The position numbers and the translations under genes are program-made. 64,000 nucleotides of DNA from Pseudomonadota bacterium. Lineage in GTDB: Archaea; Thermoplasmatota; SW-10-69-26; JACQPN01; JAJPHT01. The notes below the pieces were generated by a model. The model had not been told where the DNA came from. It saw only the letters and a program-made list of their open reading frames with translations, and did not search any database. Shown one piece after another: positions 4,127 through 64,000 of the stretch (within the stretch, counting starts at the first letter, position 1; the number at the start of each line of letters is the position of its first letter). The stretch lies in the NCBI GenBank assembly GCA_021325135.1, contig JAJPHT010000007.1, positions 1-64,000 on the forward strand. Reading direction: 5' to 3'.

Positions 4127-4291
4127 GGGGCGGGGGGTTCGGGGGGCGCAGCCCCCTGACGTTTGGTCGTCTGCTGGAACGGCTCTTTCACGTCAGGGGG
4201 GCGAGCCCCCCTGAAACCCCCATTTTGGCGGCGCTGCGGCGCGGCCGGACGATTTGCTTCAGGGGGCTTCGCCCCCCGAACCCCCCGCCCC
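4127..4291. repeat. 165-bp fold-back (MITE/REP-like) element with 33-bp terminal inverted repeats
   Basis: 4127-4159 ggggcggggggttcggggggcgcagccccctga matches the reverse complement of 4259-4291 with 1 mismatch; internal hairpin tcagggggg..cccccctga. Confidence 0.75.
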
Positions 4292-11519: not shown

Positions 11520-11645
11520 TCGTCCGGCCGCGCCGCAGCGCGGCTACCCAGGGGGGTTTCAGGGGCGCAGCCCCCTGACGTGAAGTCCGTCCCAGCAGAA
11601 GGCGAAAAACGCCGAGGGCTGGAACCCCTGGAGTCCCATGCCCCC
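11520..11645. repeat. Degenerate inverted copy of the 4127-4291 element
   Basis: tcgtccggccgcgccgcagcg..ggggtttcagggg..ccccctgacgtgaa..ccagcaga matches the reverse complement of about 4145-4252. Confidence 0.75.
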
Positions 11646-38268: not shown

Positions 38269-38508
38269 TTGCGAACGCTCCTCCTCGCCCTCCTGCTCGT
38301 GCCCGCGACCTTCGTCCTCGCCGCCCCCGCGTCCGCGGAGGGCTCGCTGCCCTGCCAGGTGACGTACCACCAGGTCTACCTCGACATGGACCACCCCACC
38401 AACGTGCCCGACGGCGTGCAGTGCGAGTCGTGCCACGTCACCTACCACCAGGTGTACCTGGACATGGACCACGCGACGAACGTCTCCGACGGCGTCGAGT
38501 GCGCCTGA
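38269..38508 (+). CDS. Small secreted peptide with two tandem Cys-closed 24-aa units
   Basis: Signal peptide ending ASA; 78-bp internal repeat with many synonymous differences. Confidence 0.8.
   Translation: MRTLLLALLLVPATFVLAAPASAEGSLPCQVTYHQVYLDMDHPTNVPDGVQCESCHVTYHQVYLDMDHATNVSDGVECA
38353..38502 (+). repeat. Two-copy 78-bp-period coding tandem repeat
   Basis: Units start at 38353 and 38431. Confidence 0.85.
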
Positions 38509-51234: not shown

Positions 51235-51262
51235 GACGCCGCCTCTCGCCTGAGCGCACCCT

Positions 51263-51800
51263 CCAGGACCCCAACCCCTTGGCTTCGGCTGGAGGGAGTG
51301 GAGAGGGCGCTCGAAGCCGGTTCGCGAGGTCCGCGACTTCGATGGAGGAACTGGATCGGGGAAGCTTGCCGCCCTGGCCCGCCGATCCTCGCGACCTTTT
51401 CTCCAGGCCCGGCATGTCAGGTCGTCACCCGTCGTGACCATACGTGCTGAGCATCGTCGATTCGCCTCGCATGCTTCGGAATCATCAAGTATCATGAGTT
51501 GCTTAGCTTCAATGGCTTTCTTTCGAGGTGGGAGAAGGAGACAGGAGGTCTCCTCTTCCGATCCCCCTTCCAACCGAAGCCAGGGGGTGGGGGTCCTGGG
51601 TGGTGAGGAGGCCTCGCCTCCCGGGGCTCACGGGTCGAGGGTTTCTCTTGCGATCCTTGGCAAGGCACCAGCAACAGGATTGCTGCTTGCCCAAGGAGCG
51701 ATCCATGCTTCCCCTGGGGGTGGCGCGTAAGCGCAGGCTCCTGGCTGCAGGGCAAGGTTCCCCGGGCGGCGGCCGCGGGGAGGGCGTGGCCTAGACCCCA
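51263..51800. repeat. Intergenic inverted repeat pair plus a ~210-nt fold-back
   Basis: 51263-51293 matches the reverse complement of 51569-51599 (28/31); nested stems ggggtc/gacccc, cccgggg/ccccggg, tccttgg/ccaagga. Confidence 0.5.
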
Positions 51801-54388: not shown

Positions 54389-54479
54389 AAAGGTCGCCAA
54401 AAGCGGGGGGTTCGGGGGGCGGAACCGGGGGCGGGCACTCGTGCCGGAACGACGCGGCACCCGTGCCGGAAAGGTCGCC
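54389..54479. promoter_or_regulatory. Tandem palindromic operator-like sites
   Basis: GGCACnCGTGCCGGAA at 54434 and 54456 (22-bp period), flanked by direct repeat AAAGGTCGCC at 54389 and 54470. Confidence 0.55.
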
Positions 54480-54568
54480 CGGTGGGTCCAACGGCCCCGG
54501 TTGACCTGTCGGCACGAGGCAGGGCCGCGCCCTTCGAGGGGTCCCGTGGAACCGACACGGTGACCCCG

Positions 54569-55024
54569 ATGGACGCGAAGACCGAGACGATCCAGACCCA
54601 CCCCCCGACCCTGCTGCCGGTGAAGAGGAGCCGCGCGGCCTACCAGGCCGGGCGCAGGAAGCACAGCTACCCCCTGGCGTTCAAGGACGAGACGGAGAAG
54701 GCGCGCTTCGAGGCCATGGCGGCCCAGGCGGGGTACGTCAGCTTCAACGCCTATCTCCTCCAGCAGTTGAGGAACGCCACGTCGGGCGCGATCTACCCGC
54801 CCGAGTATGTGGACGGGCTTCGGAAGGAGGTGGAGAAGCTTCGCGCCTGGTTGGACCAGGCGCGGGAGGAGGCGGGGGAGCTTCGGAAGGACGGGAAGCT
54901 CCTGGCCGCGGAGAAGGAGACCCTGGTGTTCCTCATCAATGCCACCAAGGACGGGAAGGACACTCTGGCCGACTTCGAGCGGATGCACGGCAAGAAGGCC
55001 CACCGCGCAGGGGTGCTCGCGTGA
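54569..55024 (+). CDS. RHH-like plus coiled-coil protein coupled to the integrase
   Basis: YPLAF....KARFEAMA...SFNAYL followed by a heptad coil; GTGA overlap. Confidence 0.75.
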   Translation: MDAKTETIQTHPPTLLPVKRSRAAYQAGRRKHSYPLAFKDETEKARFEAMAAQAGYVSFNAYLLQQLRNATSGAIYPPEYVDGLRKEVEKLRAWLDQAREEAGELRKDGKLLAAEKETLVFLINATKDGKDTLADFERMHGKKAHRAGVLA

Positions 55025-56631
55025 TCGACCCGAGGAGCCGCCAGCGCGTCCAGACCGTGACGGTCAAGCCCACTCTGGACAAGGCCCTGAGCAACGCGGC
55101 CCTGGTGGAGATGTGGGAAAGCGCCTGGGGCGGGGACCGCATGGGCCGCAAGGTCTTCTCCCGCTACAAGCGCGTGGTCCTCGACGCCATCGGCTACTTC
55201 CGCCACCCGGACGGGCGCGAAATCCCGGCCCGCGAGTGGACCAAGGAAGGCGTGTGGGACTACCTCCAGTTTGTCGAGAAGAACTACTGCGCGGCCTTCA
55301 AGACCGTCACGTTCGACCGTCCGACACCTCAAGGCGCGTGCGACAAAGGCCAATGGACGGGGCTCATGGACGCCGCGGAGGCGCTTCAGGCGAAGTGCGC
55401 CGCGTGCCCCCTGTTCGTGCGCCCCGGCGTCGAGCACCGCGTCAACGGCCTAGCCCACTGGTTCCGGCACCTCTCGATCCTGGGGGCGATCCCGTTCAAC
55501 ATCATGCTGGAGGTCCGCGACGCCAGGAAGGGGCAGGAGGTCGCGGCGCCCGCGGGCGAGCGCAGGCGCAACCCCACGCCCGACGAGATGAAGAAGCTCG
55601 TCAACGAGACGGCGCACCCCGCGCGCCGCGCGTTCTACGCGATCAGCGCGAAGTGCTACTACCGGCCCAACGAGATGATGGCCCTCGACCGGTACGCGAG
55701 CTTCGGGCTCACGATGCCCAAGGACGTGCCCCTGCCGCCGGGGTTCGACACCGGCTTTCCCTCGCATCCCGAGGTCGCGCCCTTCGACCAGGGCGGCGAC
55801 ATGGTGTACGTGCCCCGCAAGGTCACGCCAGAGGGCGTCGAACTCAAGGACAAGCGCCGGGGGAACCGGTGGATGGTCGTGGACGCGGAACTGCGGCCCA
55901 TCGTGGAGCAGTTGTTCGCCTGGTGGGAGGCCAACGTCGCGCGCGACGAGAAGGGCAGACCGTTGACGACGAAGCTTTGGCTCAACTACCGCGGCTTCGC
56001 CTTGGAGCAAGATGACCTGTATTATTCGTTCTTCTACGACGACTGCTTGCGCCTGGGCTTGATGACGGAGGCGGACCAAAAGGACCCCTTGCGCGTGTGG
56101 ACGGCTCACTGTCAGCGCCACTTCGCGGAACGTCTGTCAGTGGAGTTGAACTTCCCGGACATTTGGGCGCACCACTTCCGGGGAGACAAGATCGGCAGCG
56201 CGCGAGGCAAATACTACCAGCCCGAGCCCCTTGCCGTGCGGAAGGCCTACCACGAGTGGATGCCACGCCTCGGATTCCTGCCCTTGGCGGAGGCGCCCAA
56301 GGCGCGAGAGGCCAGCGAGGAGGAAGTGCATCGGATGGTCCTCCGATCCATGCTGATGCGCGTCACGAAGCGGCCCGGGCACGCGGGGGAGAGCCACGTC
56401 GTCCACCGCCTCCGCGTGGAAGGCACGGAGTGGATCGTCCCGGCGAAGGTGCTCAGCAGCGTGCTCTACGCGCTCCGCAAGGCGGGCATGGTCGAGCCGA
56501 GCGTGGAGAAGGCCGACGGGCAGGCGCGGGAGTACGTGCCCCGTGCGGTCCTCGTGGCCCTTTGTGAGCGGGCGTTGGGCCTCCTTGATGCGCAGAGTCC
56601 GGCCCAGGGGGCGTGCGTGATGGTGGCCTAG
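55021..56631 (+). CDS. Tyrosine recombinase/integrase, archaeal RGD-type
   Basis: YYRPNEM (R), KRRGNR (K), TAHCQRH (HxxR), FRGD in place of LGH, KYY (Y), AYHEWMPRLG end motif. Confidence 0.88.
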   Translation: MIDPRSRQRVQTVTVKPTLDKALSNAALVEMWESAWGGDRMGRKVFSRYKRVVLDAIGYFRHPDGREIPAREWTKEGVWDYLQFVEKNYCAAFKTVTFDRPTPQGACDKGQWTGLMDAAEALQAKCAACPLFVRPGVEHRVNGLAHWFRHLSILGAIPFNIMLEVRDARKGQEVAAPAGERRRNPTPDEMKKLVNETAHPARRAFYAISAKCYYRPNEMMALDRYASFGLTMPKDVPLPPGFDTGFPSHPEVAPFDQGGDMVYVPRKVTPEGVELKDKRRGNRWMVVDAELRPIVEQLFAWWEANVARDEKGRPLTTKLWLNYRGFALEQDDLYYSFFYDDCLRLGLMTEADQKDPLRVWTAHCQRHFAERLSVELNFPDIWAHHFRGDKIGSARGKYYQPEPLAVRKAYHEWMPRLGFLPLAEAPKAREASEEEVHRMVLRSMLMRVTKRPGHAGESHVVHRLRVEGTEWIVPAKVLSSVLYALRKAGMVEPSVEKADGQAREYVPRAVLVALCERALGLLDAQSPAQGACVMVA

Positions 56632-56946
56632 ATCGCCGAGGGTGGCAGGTGGCCGGGCCCTTGTGCGCGCTCTCCGGGTTGGGCCTAGGCGTTCATTCTG
56701 AAAATACGCCTCGGAGGCGCGCTTGCTTACGCCCGCAGAGCGGAGCCTAGGGGCTTGCCGCAGTTGGGGCAGGCTCCGTCCAGGCGGGGGGTGGTGTAGG
56801 CTCCGCAGGTGCGGCAGGTTCGGCGGGGTCGGGCGTGGGGTCCCGCGATGGGTCGGGCCGCGGGTGGGTCGGGCACGACGCAGAGACCACGGGCGCGAGG
56901 ATAAACGCCTCGGTTCCTCTGCCCGGGGTGCTCACGGTTCGTGGGC

Positions 56947-57225
56947 CTAGGAGGGGCGGCCCAGGAGCGATTGTGCGCGTTCCACGAATCGTTCCGCCTC
57001 TTGCATCTCGGCCTCCGCTTCAGTCAAGGCGGCCTCCACGTTCTGTCCAGTGCGCCAGGCGTCTTGGAGGGTGAAGACGGCGCGGGCGGCTTCCGCCACG
57101 GCGCGGGCGGCAGCATCGCACGCCTCCAGGTTCTGGGCGAGGCGGGCCATGCGGGCGGCGAGGTCGGCGCGCGTGACGAGCTCTTCGGCGGCGGGGAGGC
57201 GTGCGTGGGCTCGCTCCGGGCTCAT
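56947..57225 (-). CDS. Small helical hypothetical protein
   Basis: Amphipathic helices; GAAGG upstream. Confidence 0.5.
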   Translation of the reverse strand: MSPERAHARLPAAEELVTRADLAARMARLAQNLEACDAAARAVAEAARAVFTLQDAWRTGQNVEAALTEAEAEMQEAERFVERAQSLLGRPS

Positions 57226-57315
57226 CGCGCCTTCACGGCTCGTGAAGGTCTTAAAGCGGTGGAGGGCGCACGCGGGCTGCTGCAAGCCCTGGCGGGGCCC
57301 GGGCCGGCGGTGGAG

Positions 57316-57471
57316 TCAGCCATGTGCTGGCTGCTCCTCCGGTTCGTGGTCGAGCTTCGCGCGTTCGATTCCCTGCCAGTCGAGGTATCGAAGCGCGGCT
57401 TCGCGCGTCATGGTCTTGTGCACGAAGACCGCGCGCCTGAGGTGGCGCAGGATGGCGGCCTCGTCAGCCAA
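57316..57471 (-). CDS. 51-aa hypothetical protein (not in the ORF track)
   Basis: AAGGAGG before TTG; MADEAAILRHLRRAVFVHKTMTREAALRYLDWQGIE...; overlaps the stop of the upstream ORF. Confidence 0.55.
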   Translation of the reverse strand: MADEAAILRHLRRAVFVHKTMTREAALRYLDWQGIERAKLDHEPEEQPAHG

Positions 57472-57799
57472 GGGCGCGGGCCTCCTTGCGCGGCGCAGAG
57501 GTCGAGGCGATGGCTGCGCGTTCGTTCGCGTAGGCGCGCAGCGCGCCCGCGATGCGGGGCGCTTCCTCGTCCAGCACGTCCAAGGCGTGCAGGACGCGCG
57601 CCGCGTCGTCCGGGTCCGTGGGCCAGGGTGCGAGGCCTAAGAGGATGGGCAGCGGGTGGAGGGCGTTGCCGAAGCTGACGCGCGAGCGGCGCCGCGTCGC
57701 CATGAACTCGCGGGCCTCCAGCTGGAGGCCGAAGGCTTCGAGGGCTTCGCGAGAGTCCCCGCGAAGCCACTTGTGGTTCCGCTCATCCGCCACGAGCAC
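57464..57799 (-). CDS. Hypothetical protein
   Basis: Coding-like composition; coupled to the next small ORF. Confidence 0.55.
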   Translation of the reverse strand: MLVADERNHKWLRGDSREALEAFGLQLEAREFMATRRRSRVSFGNALHPLPILLGLAPWPTDPDDAARVLHALDVLDEEAPRIAGALRAYANERAAIASTSAPRKEARALG

Positions 57800-58589
57800 A
57801 CCCCCCGGGCACCAAACGCAAGCCGGGTTGTGTCGTCGTGTGGATCATCGCGCGGAGGGCGAGGCGGGAGGGCGCGGGGCGGGGCATGTGGCTTTGAGTC
57901 TCGCGGGCTTCTTGGCGTTTTAGAAGGAAGGGAGGGAACGCGTCCCCCTTCCTCCCACCCTCCGGTTTCGTGGAGGGGTGGTCTTCAAGAGGCCGAGGCC
58001 GCGCCAGGCCGGCAATGTGGGTCGGATGGGGGGTGGGTTTTTCCCCACCCACCCATGGGTGCCGCGCGTGGTCCTCGTGCGGCACGCTGGCCGTGTGGTG
58101 CTCGTGCGCGTGCTCGTCGTCCTGGGCGCGGCGCGCGTCGTCGTGGCCGTGGGGTCGGCGGCGAGGGGGCAGGAGGGCGAGGAGGAGCAGGGCGAGGCCA
58201 AGGGCAGCCGCCAGCTTCGCCAAGGAGTCCGCGCTGGGCGCGGGCGGGATCGTGAGCATGAGGCTCGCCAGCGCGAAGCTGGCGGCCTTCTGCGGGATCG
58301 TGGCGAGCGTGGGGGGCGCGGCGGGGGACGCGGCCGTCGTCGCGGGCCTCGTGCTGCGCGTCGTCCTGGGCGTGGAGATCCTCGCGACGGGGACAGGGTC
58401 CGCGTCGGCAGGGGGCGCGAGGGTCGCCCGGAGCGCGCGGGAGGCGTCCGGGCGGGGCGTGGGCGCGCGCTCGTGCGTCGTCACGGCGCCCGGGTCTTGG
58501 GAGAGGTCGGGCGCGTGCAGCGTGGGCAGGAGTGCGGCGAGGATGGCGGGCGGGGGGTCGCGGGGGTTCCAGGCGGCGGGGGCGCGCAT
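57783..58589 (-). CDS. Pro/Ala/Thr-rich protein with one TM and a His-rich tail
   Basis: Coding-like part of the 484-aa ORF; LAAALGLALLLLALLPPRRR. Confidence 0.35.
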   Translation of the reverse strand: MRAPAAWNPRDPPPAILAALLPTLHAPDLSQDPGAVTTHERAPTPRPDASRALRATLAPPADADPVPVARISTPRTTRSTRPATTAASPAAPPTLATIPQKAASFALASLMLTIPPAPSADSLAKLAAALGLALLLLALLPPRRRPHGHDDARRAQDDEHAHEHHTASVPHEDHARHPWVGGEKPTPHPTHIAGLARPRPLEDHPSTKPEGGRKGDAFPPFLLKRQEARETQSHMPRPAPSRLALRAMIHTTTQPGLRLVPGGCARGG

Positions 58590-58666
58590 CGGAGCGGGGC
58601 TGCTGCGGGCTCCAGATTTTGAGGAATGAGGGTACGTCCCCAACGGCTCGCGTCGAGCCTGGGACG

Positions 58667-58811
58667 TGGCATCGGGTTCCTGGGATTCGCTCCACCGCGC
58701 GCTGTATGTCCGAAGTAATGCCCTCCAGTAGGGGGCATTACATAGGGACCTCCAGCGGCGGTGCGAGACTCCAGGGAATCGAGCCGGGTAGGGAGTCAAG
58801 GATGCGGGCCT
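58667..58811 (+). repeat. Rod-hairpin unit 1 plus GTCAAG motif
   Basis: Apical stem gtaatgccctc/gggggcattac; motif GTCAAGGATGCGGGCC at 58795; diverged direct repeat of unit 2. Confidence 0.8.
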
Positions 58812-58881
58812 ACCCGGCTCTTGAGCCTCGTGCAGATCGTGGCGGTTGGGGAGGCTGCGTCCGCCTTGGTGGTGCATTTCC

Positions 58882-59023
58882 TGGCGTCGGCTGCCTTGAA
58901 ATCGCTCCACCGCCCGTTGCATTTCCGAAGTAGTATTCCTAGGCGGAATACTACATACGAATGCAACGAAGGCGGTGCGAGACATCAAGGCAAGACGCAG
59001 ACAAGGAGTCAAGGATGAGGCCT
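58882..59023 (+). repeat. Rod-hairpin unit 2 plus GTCAAG motif
   Basis: Stems gcgtc/gacgc, tgccttga/tcaaggca, accgcc/ggcggt, cgttgcatt/aatgcaacg, gtagtattcc/ggaatactac; motif at 59008. Confidence 0.85.
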
Positions 59024-59367
59024 TGTCCGCGTCCGAGGGAGGTGCCAACGCGCTTCGCGCCGGTCGCCAGATCGTGACGCGCAGGGCCTTCAGCGCGTGC
59101 AGGGCCGGGCGTGCGGTCGTGCAGATCGAGGCGAGGAGCGCGCGGGTGAGGGCCGCGGCGCTCTGGAGCGTGACGGTGAACTCCTCACGGGCGAGCCAGA
59201 TGGCGAGCATCGCTCGCAAGGTCGCTGGCGAGGCCATGAAGGCGACGTGGCGTCGTTGCGTGGGCGCGCGTGGAGCTGGGCGCCGTCACGGTGACGGAAC
59301 TCGGGGTGCGCGTGGTTGGCCTCGTTGTTCCGAGTCGTTGAAAAAATTCTGAGTTGAAATTCGAGTT

Positions 59368-59580
59368 GCAGGAAGGGCAGGGCACGATCCCCTTGGCCTG
59401 GTGATCTTGCGGGCAGGGGCGCCTCCTCGGGCCTTCCGATTGTTCTTCAGAATACACTACTGGCCTTCGTAAACTACGGCGTAGTGTATTCCGGGAACAA
59501 CCGGGTCCCGAGGGCTCCTCCCCGCCGATCCCCGCCAAGGATTTTCCTTGCCTGCTCAAAAGAGGTCAAGATAGGCGGCT
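59368..59580 (+). repeat. Rod-hairpin unit 3 plus GTCAAG motif
   Basis: Stems gcagg/cctgc, ccttggc/gccaagg, cctcggg/cccgagg, ttgttc/gaacaa, gaatacactac/gtagtgtattc; motif at 59565. Confidence 0.75.
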
Positions 59581-59732
59581 TTTGAGAGCGGGCGACCCGT
59601 CGAGGCGAGGGCGGCGCGCTCTGCACACTGGAGGCCGCGCAGGGGGCCCACCGGCAACAGGCCCAAGAAGACGGGAAGGGCGGAGCCGAGGGCGAGGAGG
59701 AGTCGGAGCGCGGGCGCCTGGTGAACGTCCAT
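59556..59732 (-). CDS. 58-aa hydrophobic ORF between hairpin units 3 and 4
   Basis: MDVHQAPALRLLLALGSALPVFLGLLPVG...; stop falls between the motif and hairpin 3. Confidence 0.35.
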   Translation of the reverse strand: MDVHQAPALRLLLALGSALPVFLGLLPVGPLRGLQCAERAALASTGRPLSKAAYLDLF

Positions 59733-59846
59733 GCGCCCGAGGTAGGCCGTGGTCCAATGTCAAGGGTTTCGGTGAACCATTCCACCCGACCATGCCCCGG
59801 AGCCATGTCCGGGAGCATGGTCAAGGAGGGCGCGTCAGGGAGGCCC

Positions 59847-60000
59847 GAGGCCAGCGCTTCCACGCACGGTCCGCCGGGGACACCGAAGTGGCACATTCCA
59901 TAGGCATTCCCTTTGGGAAGGGGAATGCCTCTGGAGGCGCTTCGTCTGTCCCGGCGGTGCGTGGGCGATTGGCGCCTCTTTCCAAGTCAAGATGTGGGCC
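59847..60000 (+). repeat. Rod-hairpin unit 4 plus GTCAAG motif
   Basis: Stems gaggc/gcctc, ccacgcac/gtgcgtgg, cgaagtg/cgcttcg, aggcattccc/gggaatgcct; motif at 59986. Confidence 0.75.
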
Positions 60001-60105
60001 GGAACTTCGGCGCGTGCCAAGCGCCCACGCAAGGCCAAGCGAAGAGGAGCCACCGGGTGGGGGGTGGGAATGCCCCTTTGATATCTGCCTGGGTGTCGTG
60101 GGTGG

Positions 60106-61320
60106 CTACGTGGGGGCAACGTCCAAGAAAGTCGGGCGCTGGTCGCGGTGGTCGGCGGTGGCGAGGACGAGGGCTTGCACCGCTTCGCGCAACACGGCGT
60201 CCCTGGCGTGCTCGCCGTTGAACTTGGTGAGCCAGGGGCCGGCGTAGGCGGCGTCGGCGGCCTCTTGGGCGGTGAGATTCCCCGCGGTCGCCCGGACCCA
60301 TGCCTGCTCGATGACGCTATCGGGGGTGGGGGTGTAGTTGGCGAGGTATCCCTTGTGGATTTCCAGGACGACGGCCCGGGTGGAGTTGGCGCGGAAGGCG
60401 GCCTCCAGCGCGCCTTCCGTCCAGCCCCGGTCGAGGGTTTGGTTGATGACGTAGGGGAAGAAGTTGTGCGCGAGTCCGTAGAAGAAGGAGTCGTCGGCGC
60501 CTCCGCGCTCGTATGTCACGGTCTGGGAGTCCGCGCGGACGTGCTCGATGTAGGCCAGCCCGGCGGGTCCCACCGTGATGACCTGCGAGGTCTGATTTGC
60601 CGCGGCGTCCTCGGCGGCGCGCGCCTCGGAGAGCCAGAAATCCGCCGTGGTGAGCCGGCGATCGGCGCGGCCAAGGGCGGTACCATCCGTGGCGTATGAC
60701 TTCCCGTCGTCGTTTGGGTACGGCTCGGGGCCCGGCTTGGCGCTGGAGATTTGCGCGGGCCAGTCCACGTCCAGGACCGCTCGGGCCTCTTCGGCAGCCA
60801 ATTCCGCCAAAGCTAGGGCGTTGATTGCCTGCACGCTATGAGCCTTCGGTCGAAATGCCGTGATGTTCGCCTCCATGGCGGCCGTCGCGTTGCGCACCTC
60901 GCCGGGAGCGTTCTTCCATGTCTGAATTTGAGTCTCGCGGTCGGGGGATGCGAACCCACGCGAGAGGGCGAATGCATCTTCGTAGGCAAGTTCCGTGTCG
61001 TCGATGGCGAGTGTGATATTGTGGTCTTGGGCGTAGAACTTGGCAAACGTTGTCCCTGCGTAATCCCGAGTCCAAGCAGCAGTTTCGCCGCTAACATTCA
61101 TCGCCGATGCGTTGAGACGGTCGGTCGCCGTGACCTCCCAGTCGAACTGACGCTCCAGGAACGGGGAGGTCGCGTCGACGGTGTGCAAGGGAGACAGAGG
61201 CGTCGGGGCGGAGAACGTGGGAGTTGCCGGCCCACCCAGATGCCCTGTTTCCAAGATGAGCACGATGGCCAAGAGAATCCCGAGGAGGCCGAGAGCTTCG
61301 GGAGGTACACGTCGACGCAT
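60106..61320 (-). CDS. Membrane-anchored extracellular helical protein
   Basis: N-terminal TM, N-glycosylation sequons; directly follows 61330-63633. Confidence 0.7.
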   Translation of the reverse strand: MRRRVPPEALGLLGILLAIVLILETGHLGGPATPTFSAPTPLSPLHTVDATSPFLERQFDWEVTATDRLNASAMNVSGETAAWTRDYAGTTFAKFYAQDHNITLAIDDTELAYEDAFALSRGFASPDRETQIQTWKNAPGEVRNATAAMEANITAFRPKAHSVQAINALALAELAAEEARAVLDVDWPAQISSAKPGPEPYPNDDGKSYATDGTALGRADRRLTTADFWLSEARAAEDAAANQTSQVITVGPAGLAYIEHVRADSQTVTYERGGADDSFFYGLAHNFFPYVINQTLDRGWTEGALEAAFRANSTRAVVLEIHKGYLANYTPTPDSVIEQAWVRATAGNLTAQEAADAAYAGPWLTKFNGEHARDAVLREAVQALVLATADHRDQRPTFLDVAPT

Positions 61321-61329
61321 GCTAACCTC

Positions 61330-63633
61330 CTAGCCGTGCCTGATTTCGAGGGTCTTGGCGAGGTCGATCCAGTTCCACCACTCGTCGGTCACGGCATAGA
61401 GCCCGTTGAAGTTTTGCTCGATCGAGTGCAGGGCCTTGACCCCTCCGTGGAAGGTGCTTTGGCTCGTGCATGAGCCGCCGGTTCCGGGGATGGCGGCGCA
61501 TCCCCATTGGACGTTGAGGTCCATGCCCTCGTCGTGGCCGTAGATGTCCGTCTTTTGGAAGTAGACGTAATCCTGAGCCTGCGGGGACGTGCTGACGTCG
61601 TTCTGGACGACGTAGTCGGAGCATGCCGTTCCTTGGCAGGAGAAGAGTTGGGCCACGGCGGGGAGCCACTGGCCGTCCGGCACGAGCGCCAGGAAGTTGA
61701 TCAGGTCCTGAATGGAGGGCCCGATTGCGGGAGCTTGCGATGCGCTCGCGCCGTCCCGGCTGAAGTCCGCGATCCCGTTGGGCGTCGTCTTCCAGAACTG
61801 GCTGCTCTGGGTGATGTCTCCCCGGATGATGCCAATCTCCGGGTTCTGGGTCCGGTAACACATGACCTGGACCCAACTGGAGTCGAGCGGATGGCACATC
61901 GAGACGCCCGACGACCAGGCGTTGTTGCTAGACACGCCGTGGCCGGTCGTCATGGTGTACGTCTGCTGGTTCCCAGTGAGGGCGTTCTTGCCATAGAACT
62001 CGTAGTCGAAGCTCCACGCGGCGGGCTGGTCGATCGAGCGGTGTCCCGCGCAGTCGACCACGCCGCGGTCCACGCGCGAGAACTTGAAGAGGCCCCGGTC
62101 GTAGGCCTGGAAGTCGGAGACGGTCCGCGTGTTGTTGTCGCCGCCGTCCGTGTACGAAACCGGCGAGGGCGAGTTGCTACCGCAGGGAATCCAGTTGCGC
62201 GTGAAGCAGGCCTTCACCGTGCCAGGCAGCGGGTCGCCGAAGGCGCTCGTGGTGCAGGAAATGCTGCCGGAGACGCCGTCGCGCCAGTAGAACCGTCCGT
62301 TCGCGCCGAAGGCCACGTCTCTCGTGCCGCTGAAGCTGCACGTCCCGCTCTCGTTGGCGCAGAAGGCGTACCCCATGGGACCCGTGGGCAGGGCGCTGGT
62401 CTTGGTGAAACACGCCTTCACGATCCCGTAGAGCGGGTCGCCGAAGAGGTCGTTGTTGCAGTCGATCCCCAGGTTGACGCCGTTGAGGTAGGTGAACGTC
62501 CCTTGCGCTCCGTAGGCAACGTCGCTCTTGCCCGAATAGCTGCAACGGTTGTTCTCCGAGGCGCAGTAGGAGTACCCGGGGGGACCTGCAATGCGCGTGT
62601 AACACGCCTTGCCGACCCCGTAGAGGGGATCGCCGAAGACTGTGTTCGTGCAGTCGGTCCCGCCCGAGAGCGTGAGGCTGTTGAACGTCCCGTCGGCGCC
62701 ATACTTCACGTCCGCGGGCCCCGTGAAGGTGCAGTGCTGGGGCTCGGGCACGCAGTAGGTGAAGCCCGCGGGCTCCCCGCTTCCGTCGGTGGCCTTCGTG
62801 TAACAGGCGTTGGTCGTCCCGGAGTTGGGATCGCCGAACACGTCGTTGCGGCAGCTTACGAAGTGGTCCACGCTGTGCTTGTAGAGGAAAGACGAGCCGG
62901 CGCCGTAGGCCACGTCCTTGAGGCCCGTGAACGTGCAGTCCGCGCCCTGGTCCGCGCAGTATGTGTAGCCGCTGGGCCCCGTGGGCGTCATGGGCGACGC
63001 GGTGGTGCGGTTCGTCCCGTTCCCAGCCGCGTCGTTGACCACGATGGTGTCGTTCTGCGGGGCTCGGCTCGTCGCGGCCACCGAGGAGAGCACCGCGGCC
63101 CCGAGCCCGGTTCCTGCGGCGGACGGTGCGAGCGCCGCAGGAGGGGCCAGGTCAAGGGGCGTGATGGGGAACTCGGCGACCGTGGCGCCGCTGAGCGGGT
63201 CGACAAGCTGCCAGAGCCCGGCCTGGTCGGGAATGACGTGCCAGAAGAGGTAGTAGTGGTCCGGCGCGTTCGACGCCCGCGTGTCGGTGAACTCGACGCC
63301 CGTCCTGCCCACGATTTGTCCGAGAGGGTTCACGAGTTGGAGGCTCTGGCGGGCGGGCGCCCCGTAGACGGCGAAGCTCTGCGCCTCCGAGAGAGAGTAG
63401 CCCACGAACTGAGGGCGTTCGCCGCCGAGGATCATGGTGGCGATGTGCCCCGAGTAGTGAAGCCCATCCGGCGCGTCGGGCGCGGCGTCTCGCGCGGGCG
63501 CCCCTGAGGCGCCCGTGGCGGGCGCGGGCTCCGCCGCGAGGGCCAGCGTCGGGGCCAGGAGGAGAAGGACGCTGACGAGCGCCAGACGGGTCGTTCGCGG
63601 GCGTGTGCTGGATCGCGTAGTTGGCTCTTGCAT
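61330..63633 (-). CDS. Secreted protein with four Cys-rich ~62-aa lectin-like repeats
   Basis: Signal peptide; 4x P.G[YF].[YF]C......C.[FY].G..DV.[YF]GA...C....FGDP..G...AC[YF]T. Confidence 0.8.
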   Translation of the reverse strand: MQEPTTRSSTRPRTTRLALVSVLLLLAPTLALAAEPAPATGASGAPARDAAPDAPDGLHYSGHIATMILGGERPQFVGYSLSEAQSFAVYGAPARQSLQLVNPLGQIVGRTGVEFTDTRASNAPDHYYLFWHVIPDQAGLWQLVDPLSGATVAEFPITPLDLAPPAALAPSAAGTGLGAAVLSSVAATSRAPQNDTIVVNDAAGNGTNRTTASPMTPTGPSGYTYCADQGADCTFTGLKDVAYGAGSSFLYKHSVDHFVSCRNDVFGDPNSGTTNACYTKATDGSGEPAGFTYCVPEPQHCTFTGPADVKYGADGTFNSLTLSGGTDCTNTVFGDPLYGVGKACYTRIAGPPGYSYCASENNRCSYSGKSDVAYGAQGTFTYLNGVNLGIDCNNDLFGDPLYGIVKACFTKTSALPTGPMGYAFCANESGTCSFSGTRDVAFGANGRFYWRDGVSGSISCTTSAFGDPLPGTVKACFTRNWIPCGSNSPSPVSYTDGGDNNTRTVSDFQAYDRGLFKFSRVDRGVVDCAGHRSIDQPAAWSFDYEFYGKNALTGNQQTYTMTTGHGVSSNNAWSSGVSMCHPLDSSWVQVMCYRTQNPEIGIIRGDITQSSQFWKTTPNGIADFSRDGASASQAPAIGPSIQDLINFLALVPDGQWLPAVAQLFSCQGTACSDYVVQNDVSTSPQAQDYVYFQKTDIYGHDEGMDLNVQWGCAAIPGTGGSCTSQSTFHGGVKALHSIEQNFNGLYAVTDEWWNWIDLAKTLEIRHG

Positions 63634-64000
63634 GGTGTTCGCCTCGGTGGTGAAGGCGAGTCCGCACAAACGCCCCATTGCGCGACTCCCCCAATCTCAT
63701 AACAGAATGGGGGAGAGAAAGGTTCCGGAGAATTGTTGTGAAACCCCTGTGAAGTTGCGCGGCAATGGTTAGCATGCCGCAGGCGAGTTTGGGGCGTGGC
63801 CGAGGCGAACTTGAGGCTTCCCCTCGGCGTTGTTTCCCCCTCGCTGGGGCGGCATGAATTCGCGCGGCCCGGGAGAAGGCCGCGGGGATGGCGCGGTGGC
63901 CCCTAGGTGCGGCTGGCTCCTCAGGGCCTGCGGGTGGGGCACCTCCAGGGTGTTAGGAGGTCCGTCAAGATGGGGCCTCTGTGAGGGTGAGGTTGCCTTG

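Follow-up and report, generated by a model that had tools for sequence, protein, structure and literature searches.

Most attB sites of archaeal tyrosine recombinases lie in tRNA genes, and the dif site of XerA has inverted arms around a 6-nt spacer, the same in kind as the site deduced here (PMC8371274). The integrase of SNJ2, a haloarchaeal pleolipovirus, is co-transcribed with coiled-coil and DNA-binding proteins that raise the efficiency of integration (PMC5861418). The subject of this report is an integrase gene with a small partner gene at the left end of an integrated element of ~14 kb, found in an uncultured soil archaeon of the phylum Thermoplasmatota with a genome of 3.77 Mb. The DNA analysed, referred to as the window, comprises positions 1-64,000 (64,000 nt; G+C ~70%) of contig JAJPHT010000007.1 (labelled C45) of assembly GCA_021325135.1. 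The two genes are read as the integration module of this element, which would act by classical recombination of duplex DNA, with a four-cysteine zinc lobe in the integrase and the partner protein as a helper; the probability of this reading is put at roughly 0.75. The coordinates of the features are shown in Table 1.

By analogy of arrangement, the SNJ2 operon appears to be the nearest described precedent. Both systems have an archaeal tyrosine integrase, overlapping small upstream genes and a short attachment core (PMC5861418). The overlap measures 4 nt at this locus. SNJ2 has two helper proteins, including a MarR-type winged helix, and targets tRNA-Met, whereas a single protein with a probable ribbon-helix-helix (RHH) unit and a coiled coil is present here, the target is a repeat resembling repetitive extragenic palindromic (REP) sequences, and the host phylum differs. 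The four-cysteine (Cys4) insert, the RGD motif and the C-terminal domain described below are not known from SNJ2; the words 'zinc' and 'cysteine' occur neither in the SNJ2 paper (PMC5861418) nor in the review of archaeal tyrosine recombinases (PMC8371274).

XerA, the archaeal chromosome-dimer resolvase, is the best structural match to both domains of the integrase. It lacks the Cys4 insert, the C-terminal domain and the partner gene, and measures ~270-280 aa in solved chains. XerA carries LGH in place of RGD and is encoded by a single-copy chromosomal gene; the family described here, in contrast, is multi-copy, located on elements and limited to two families of the phylum. The integron integrase IntI (PDB 2a3v) shares with it the tyrosine-recombinase fold, a family-specific insertion and a palindromic target that can fold into a hairpin. 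The insertion of IntI is part of the catalytic domain and touches bases that are flipped out of folded attC, whereas the conserved insert here lies in the core-binding domain, the core sites look like duplex sites, and no attI or cassette array was found in the neighbouring hairpins. Core sites flanked by accessory sites and small DNA-binding helpers (Xis/IHF) are also features of lambda Int; the present integrase differs in having no N-terminal arm-binding domain, and the accessory boxes are symmetric palindromes, with the helper encoded upstream and translationally coupled. The insertion sequences IS1397 and ISKpn1 and the IS110-family members ISPpu9 and ISPpu10 insert at a fixed position in REP sequences, which offer a high-copy neutral target. 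These are bacterial elements of 1-2 kb with DDE/DEDD transposases; here the enzyme is a tyrosine integrase, the elements measure 14-26 kb and the host is an archaeon. A full-text literature search, as far as titles and abstract openings go, returned no tyrosine recombinase aimed at REP sequences.

Table 1. Features of the integration module and its attachment site (positions above 64,000 lie on C45 beyond the window).
Feature	Position	Strand	Remarks
Host half of interrupted REP-like arm (attL side)	54403-54421	+	last 7 nt GGGGGCG (54415-54421), duplicated core
Integrated element	54422-68439 of the contig (window part 54422-64000)	.	from reconstitution of the REP arm; ~14 kb
Element-side core arm, left end	54422-54433	+	GAACCGGGGGCG; right end C45 68420-68439, outside the window
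Palindromic boxes GGCAC-N2-GTGCC	54434-54445, 54456-54467; third C45 68408-68419	.	third box mirror-placed across the core
Partner ORF	54569-55024	+	151 aa; N-terminal RHH-like unit, residues ~32-71; long coiled coil, residues 78-147
Integrase ORF	55021-56631	+	536 aa, GTG start
Cys4 insert, core-binding domain	55285-55431	+	~49 aa, residues 89-137; modelled as beta-hairpin and helix
Integrase catalytic codons	R215 55663, E218 55672, K278 55852, H363 56107, R366 56116, D389 56185, Y398 56212	+	
Pro/Gly-rich insert, catalytic domain	55696-55806	+	residues 226-262, between ArgI and the Lys beta-hairpin
C-terminal extra domain	56275-56631	+	residues 419-536; order alpha-beta-beta-alpha-beta-alpha

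The limits of the element follow from its flanks. The host half-arm on the left, joined to C45 68440-68454 on the right, rebuilds in full (34/34) the reverse complement of the intact arm found at C45 68550-68583, and each junction carries a copy of the 7-bp sequence GGGGGCG. Between the left junction and the partner gene there are 147 nt, and integration has left the integrase gene whole, so that the SSV-type arrangement, with attP inside the integrase gene and the gene split on integration, is not seen here. The host gene to the right is orc1/cdc6 (C45 68622-69845, just past the window); the element occupies the intergenic region downstream of it, inside a cluster of three repeat arms. Three related species have orc1/cdc6 orthologues that are 94-98% identical. 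Between the membrane-protein gene and cdc6 they hold ~130 nt (G012), 1.4 kb with other genes (G009) or a gap of ~2.1 kb (G011), and the 14-kb element is absent from this locus in all three, with no room for it. Compared at the sequence level, flanks and empty loci show that the element inserted into one repeat arm and define its junctions exactly. The window was scanned for tRNA genes and Rfam families, and none of either was found; the alignments confirm integration at a REP-like repeat with no tRNA gene used here. The G+C content of third codon positions (GC3) is near 0.95 in host genes and lower, about 0.80-0.91, in the genes from 54.5 kb on.

With up to 3 mismatches allowed, the 34-nt arm (GCGGGGGGTTCGGGGGGCGCAGCCCCCTGACGTC) has 108 copies in the genome (reversed-pattern control, 0). 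Eight copies are present in the sister species and none in seven other genomes of the family; this REP/REPIN-like family therefore looks like a recent expansion in the species of the window. Examples are located at window positions 4130-4163, 4255-4288 and 11549-11582 and at 7885-8060 of contig C6. Most of the arms form inverted pairs ~58 or 130 nt apart that fold to a perfect hairpin of 33 bp (dG -56.7 kcal/mol).

Joining of the two element ends yields the deduced attP, which reads in full: box GGCACTAGTGCC, TTTT, CCCGGCTCC, GGGGGC, GGAACCGGG, GGCG, box GGCACTCGTGCC, 10 nt, box GGCACCCGTGCC. Its core consists of 9-bp inverted arms, complementary at 8/9 positions, around the 6-bp spacer. The attB site has the spacer and the adjacent 5-6 bp in common with attP. 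Judged from their composition, attP and attB have the standard duplex layout expected for a recombinase tetramer. The pattern GGCAC-N2-GTGCC is found five times in the 3.77-Mb genome, three of them at the two ends of this element. Such a compact attP with accessory boxes could become a recombination tool if activity is confirmed.

An AlphaFold2 model of the integrase, built from 29 homologues, reached a mean predicted local distance difference test score (pLDDT) of 85. Foldseek with this model returned XerA, lambda Int, Cre and Tn1549 Int, all at probability 1.0. In VIA-align the highest score was obtained with XerA (Z 17.7; PDB 4a8e and 5hxy, 17.7 and 15.8), ahead of Brujita Int (14.4), IntI (14.3) and lambda Int (13.7). 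Isolated SAM-like core-binding domains match residues 20-170 (Z 8.6-11.7), with only ~100 of the 150 residues of this part of the integrase aligning to canonical ones, and isolated catalytic domains match residues ~180-410 (Z 10-13.7). A structure search of BFVD gave generic phage integrases only, with Mx8 as the best. On the basis of the model, the ORF is a genuine, highly diverged tyrosine recombinase with two domains.

The residues R215, E218, K278, R366, R387-G388-D389 and Y398 are invariant in the 29 homologues, which are of 39-48% identity, and H363 is retained in at least 90% of them. The distances from R366 to D389 (23 residues) and from D389 to Y398 (9 residues) equal those that separate ArgII, His/TrpIII and Tyr in XerD, Cre and lambda Int; RGD is therefore placed at the LGH position, with Asp for the usual His or Trp. 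The His/Trp of position III (LGH/W) is absent from the integrase, and RGD/E is kept clade-wide. In relatives that are positive for PF00589 the Pfam alignment spans the region of the RGD motif. The RGD integrase is a variant inside the tyrosine recombinase superfamily, and D389 is no ground for its exclusion. Sequence searches of the PDB with the integrase and with the family profile yielded chance matches only (with the profile, none at E < 0.1); one of them, 28 residues long, falls on the SAM-like helix motif. No match was obtained by tblastn against the phage (50,697 records) and plasmid collections. Among the papers searched, no tyrosine recombinase with Asp at the His/Trp position was encountered.

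A preliminary description of the locus, made from the DNA letters, had listed the catalytic R, K, HxxR and Y with RGD for LGH, the pattern C-x16-C-x18-CxxC in the core-binding region, a Pro/Gly-rich insert after the catalytic Arg, an extra domain of ~115 aa beyond PRLG, and coupling to an RHH/coiled-coil gene, and had proposed AlphaFold, Foldseek and Cys conservation as checks. The motifs were all recovered at the positions given here, the modelling returned the two-domain fold, and the four Cys proved invariant; for the coupled gene the GTGA overlap is certain and the RHH part probable.

The Cys4 insert contains C90, C107, C126 and C129 and is located between the third helix of the core-binding domain and the helix with the R..N.L...F..L motif. 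All four Cys are conserved in 29/29 homologues. Four distant relatives that were read directly have a four-Cys cluster at the equivalent place, as does the alignment of the relatives, in which three Cys columns are invariant and the fourth shifts. A structural metal site in the core-binding domain is plausible because the four Cys are conserved, and the insert is most likely a structural zinc lobe, as far as sequence can tell. The zinc would stiffen an extra lobe that contacts DNA or protein. No tyrosine recombinase with a zinc- or metal-bearing core-binding domain appeared in the titles and abstract openings returned by the full-text literature search. Alternatively, the four Cys might form disulfides or an iron-sulfur cluster and turn the insert into a redox-sensitive switch. 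Four Cys might in principle hold a [4Fe-4S] or [2Fe-2S] cluster, but two Cys flanking a beta-hairpin with two close Cys at a helix end are the usual layout of small zinc modules, and stable disulfides are unlikely in cytoplasmic DNA enzymes of archaea outside the hyperthermophiles. Spacing varies widely in the distant relatives and just the four Cys are kept, which fits a structural site; a redox switch is therefore considered unlikely.

The Pro/Gly stretch proper (residues 232-249) has a pLDDT of 94-98 in the model. The insert is missing in 6 of the 29 homologues and in the L012 orthologue of the integrase; in a maximum-likelihood tree the lineages without it are basal and those bearing it fall into one crown clade. 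PRLG (residues 415-418) is followed by 118 more residues, modelled as a compact alpha/beta unit (pLDDT 65-93 for the most part) that ends in a disordered tail. This C-terminal extension is present in 28/28 homologues of alignment A1 and absent from the distant relatives, from the paralogue on contig C7 (438 aa) and from the L012 orthologue. A fold search with the domain gave template-modelling scores below 0.5 in the Atlas, and the best PDB row over residues 430-536, Bpa at Z 5.1, was treated as no match. From their distribution, C-terminal domain and Pro/Gly insert are later accessory additions confined to one genus. A 119-aa ORF following the C7 integrase was considered as a detached C-terminal domain and rejected (hhalign probability 0.1%).

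Partner and integrase are encoded on the same strand by overlapping, translationally coupled genes. The AlphaFold2 model of the partner (pLDDT 83) shows an extended segment (residues 32-40), helices at 41-54 and 59-71, followed by one long helix of nearly 50 residues. Foldseek gave 39 rows, of which ~30 are RHH proteins (Arc, CopG, NikR, MazE, ParD, MatP) with a local root-mean-square deviation of 1.5-2.3 A over ~40 residues; every row has E > 1. An Atlas feature search pointed to RHH_1 clusters (0.89) and counts as a lead only. Pfam returned no RHH match for the partner and coiled-coil noise only, and a wide VIA search was dominated by the long helix and uninformative for the RHH unit. The model makes an RHH unit combined with a coiled coil probable. 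The partner gene stands upstream of 4/4 paralogues in the genome of the window, of five copies in G012 and of the G009 and outgroup copies. Two distant relatives on their own contigs are preceded by an overlapping gene homologous to the partner (hhalign 97% and 99%). The preliminary description had mentioned that RGD-type integrases come with an RHH partner encoded upstream, and this holds for every family member examined, distant ones included.

The family comprises ~39 full-length metagenome homologues of 39-50% identity, none of which has a Pfam domain. An exhaustive phmmer search added weaker relatives of ~320-540 aa, mostly 355-430 aa, with E-values of 1e-6 to 1e-18 for those matching PF00589; this domain was found in 8 of the 10 relatives scanned. 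The aligned relatives have LRGD/E and KRxGN in common with the integrase, and all but two end at the position equivalent to PRLG, the two others carrying unrelated tails of ~40-55 aa. Among 401 genomes of the phylum, full-length matches are confined to the genus of the window and one other family; other genomes have catalytic-domain matches only, which were taken to be XerA-like genes. Within the class the long form occurs in the genus of the window only, with 1 to 6 matches per genome. The wider-clade profile A4 retrieved nothing but unnamed metagenome proteins from a word-indexed protein database. By this distribution among distant relatives and genomes, Cys4, RGD and partner are ancestral marks of a Thermoplasmatota clade of two families, and the C-terminal domain is specific to a genus-level subfamily. 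Standard annotation misses the integrase family entirely, so that elements integrated in the genomes of these archaea from soil and groundwater are overlooked; Cys4, RGD and the coupled RHH partner may serve as a signature for finding them. The possible metal site and the Asp at the His/Trp position offer testable variations on a well-studied mechanism.

Under the proposed mechanism, strand exchange would be classical and proceed via Y398 on duplex DNA. Two integrase subunits would occupy the 9-bp inverted arms of attP around the 6-bp overlap GGGGGC, and two more a similar site inside one REP-like repeat arm (attB). The partner would probably dimerise via its RHH unit, assemble further via its coiled coil, and bind the GGCAC-N2-GTGCC boxes, which lie symmetrically ~13 nt on each side of the core. 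Bound there, it could help to build the complex on attP and act as a repressor of the overlapping operon promoter, a role analogous to that of Orf2/Orf3 of SNJ2. The boxes may also serve autoregulation, since they lie between the junction and the start of the operon. We propose the partner as the best candidate for the box-binding protein. We infer catalysis by the integrase, and likewise a role for its C-terminal domain.

Several points weigh against this interpretation. Pfam, NCBIfam and PHROGs assign the integrase to no family, PF00589 giving no match at E up to 1, and Asp at the His/Trp III position is unusual. The RHH assignment leans on weak scores (Foldseek E > 1) and a protein-language-model lead, and box binding could be assigned to the integrase as well as to the partner. 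The C7 copy has Gly for H363 and a long tree branch, and may therefore be decaying. For the paralogues on contigs C46 and C39, a direct-repeat search and a 12-mer profile for att sites were uninformative in this genome of 70% G+C. A prediction of the integrase-partner complex scored 0.00, which is evidence for neither side.

The C7 integrase (42% identical) marks a second element, of 25.9 kb (contig C7, ~543-26408), which entered a different arm of the repeat family at the identical position. Its flanks rebuild a 31-mer that has 12 exact copies, with a 6-bp duplication, GGGGGC. The layout of the site is equivalent, with GGCAAC-TA-GTTGCC (2 in the genome) as the box, and the integrase operon has the opposite orientation relative to the spacer. 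An extra ORF of 190 aa lies between partner gene and integrase in this element. Two elements at the same arm position of a high-copy palindromic repeat that is restricted to this species and its sister depart from the rule of tRNA targets (PMC8371274), and a repeat target might account for the coexistence of several related elements in one genome. Orthologous modules on C39 and in G009 are similar up to the same upstream point (C39 ~17712, which places the left end of the C39 element there; G009 contig C22) and lie in unrelated flanks, which indicates independent insertions of one element type; their integrases pair at 100/100 in the tree, and the partners are close by eye.

The targets used by related operons differ. 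In G012 two operons directly follow a different REP-like unit and two are located just after a third kind of G/C hairpin, while a basal member without the insert starts 137 nt after a tRNA-Arg(GCG) gene (L011 9347-9423). The distal ends of the G012 elements were sought in the stretches covered and not found. The family thus has an ordinary tRNA-adjacent member and several repeat-associated ones, and the tree hints that the target may correlate with the Pro/Gly insert. The palindromic unit that abuts two G012 operons (L008 9145-9275, L009 1431-1485) reads GGACGAAAGG ... GATTCGTCC and has two small hairpins inside. ACTAGT-centred palindromes follow the junction in several elements.

A different view would have structure recognised in place of sequence: a hairpin or cruciform of the REP-like doublet, or folded single-stranded DNA as in IntI/attC or XerCD/CTX, read by the Cys4 lobe or the C-terminal domain. 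The target arm does belong to inverted pairs that fold to the 33-bp hairpin, the crossover falls in the 5' stem of a small hairpin within the arm, attP is itself a long palindrome, and IntI is among the structural matches. However, IntI scores no better than other recombinases, and the inserts sit at other positions than the IntI insertion. The inverted arms of attP and attB with an identical overlap of 6-7 bp are all that duplex recombination needs, and an attP folded as a single strand would, from what is generally known of IntI and XerCD/CTX, place the overlap in a loop, where it is no recombinase substrate. Variants without the C-terminal domain are also found in or beside REP-like repeats, and one orthologue adjoins a tRNA gene. 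Recognition of structure is quite unlikely on these grounds.

The preliminary description had gone further and suggested that the insert and the extra domains might allow recognition of unusual substrates such as hairpins, as in IntI. This analogy is unsupported because the attachment sites look like ordinary duplex sites, and because the conserved insert lies in the core-binding domain; natural members that lack the C-terminal domain and the Pro/Gly insert weaken it further. A degenerate core pattern found REP arms and attL in the window and nothing inside the hairpin array at 58667-60000, and an integron-like reading of these neighbouring hairpins was rejected because they contain no core-like site. 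The same description held that its proposal would fall if the Cys residues varied or if close homologues were ordinary tRNA-targeting integrases with no hairpin arrays: the Cys are conserved, in its favour, and the orthologue beside tRNA-Arg counts against it. A family specialised to read long REPIN-like palindromes in folded form (hairpin or cruciform), through the zinc lobe and the extra domains, is an improbable proposition. If it were true, archaeal islands of 14-26 kb would gain ~100 neutral landing sites per genome, by a structure-guided multi-site integration of a kind that no tyrosine integrase of an integrative element is known to use.

That the integrase is an inactive relic or captured by the host, with the element fixed and the protein conserved for DNA binding or regulation, is very unlikely: D389 in place of the usual His/Trp, the lack of a recognisable replication or virion gene among the element ORFs and the decay seen in the C7 copy would fit it, but the residues R, E, K, H, R and Y vary little or not at all in the 29 sequences and are kept in relatives at ~25% identity, each genome has 4-6 divergent copies, whose loci differ between sister species, the junctions are exact and their duplicated cores intact, and the conservation of RGD/E throughout the clade speaks for a variant active site that works.

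The integration module by duplex recombination remains the preferred reading of the two genes. Among the cargo of the element is an ORF of 782 aa on the minus strand (window 61330-63678), which has a signal-like N-terminus and no Pfam match; its DNA contains repeats with a period of ~200 nt (families D1-D3), suggesting a repeated domain of ~65 aa. Left of the element, an inverted repeat of 40 nt with 85% complementarity (window 51257-51296 and 51566-51605) encloses 269 nt of non-coding DNA upstream of a metallophosphoesterase gene. A tandem duplication of 78 nt (1.9 copies, 83% match) is located at window positions 38353-38503 within an ORF of high GC3.

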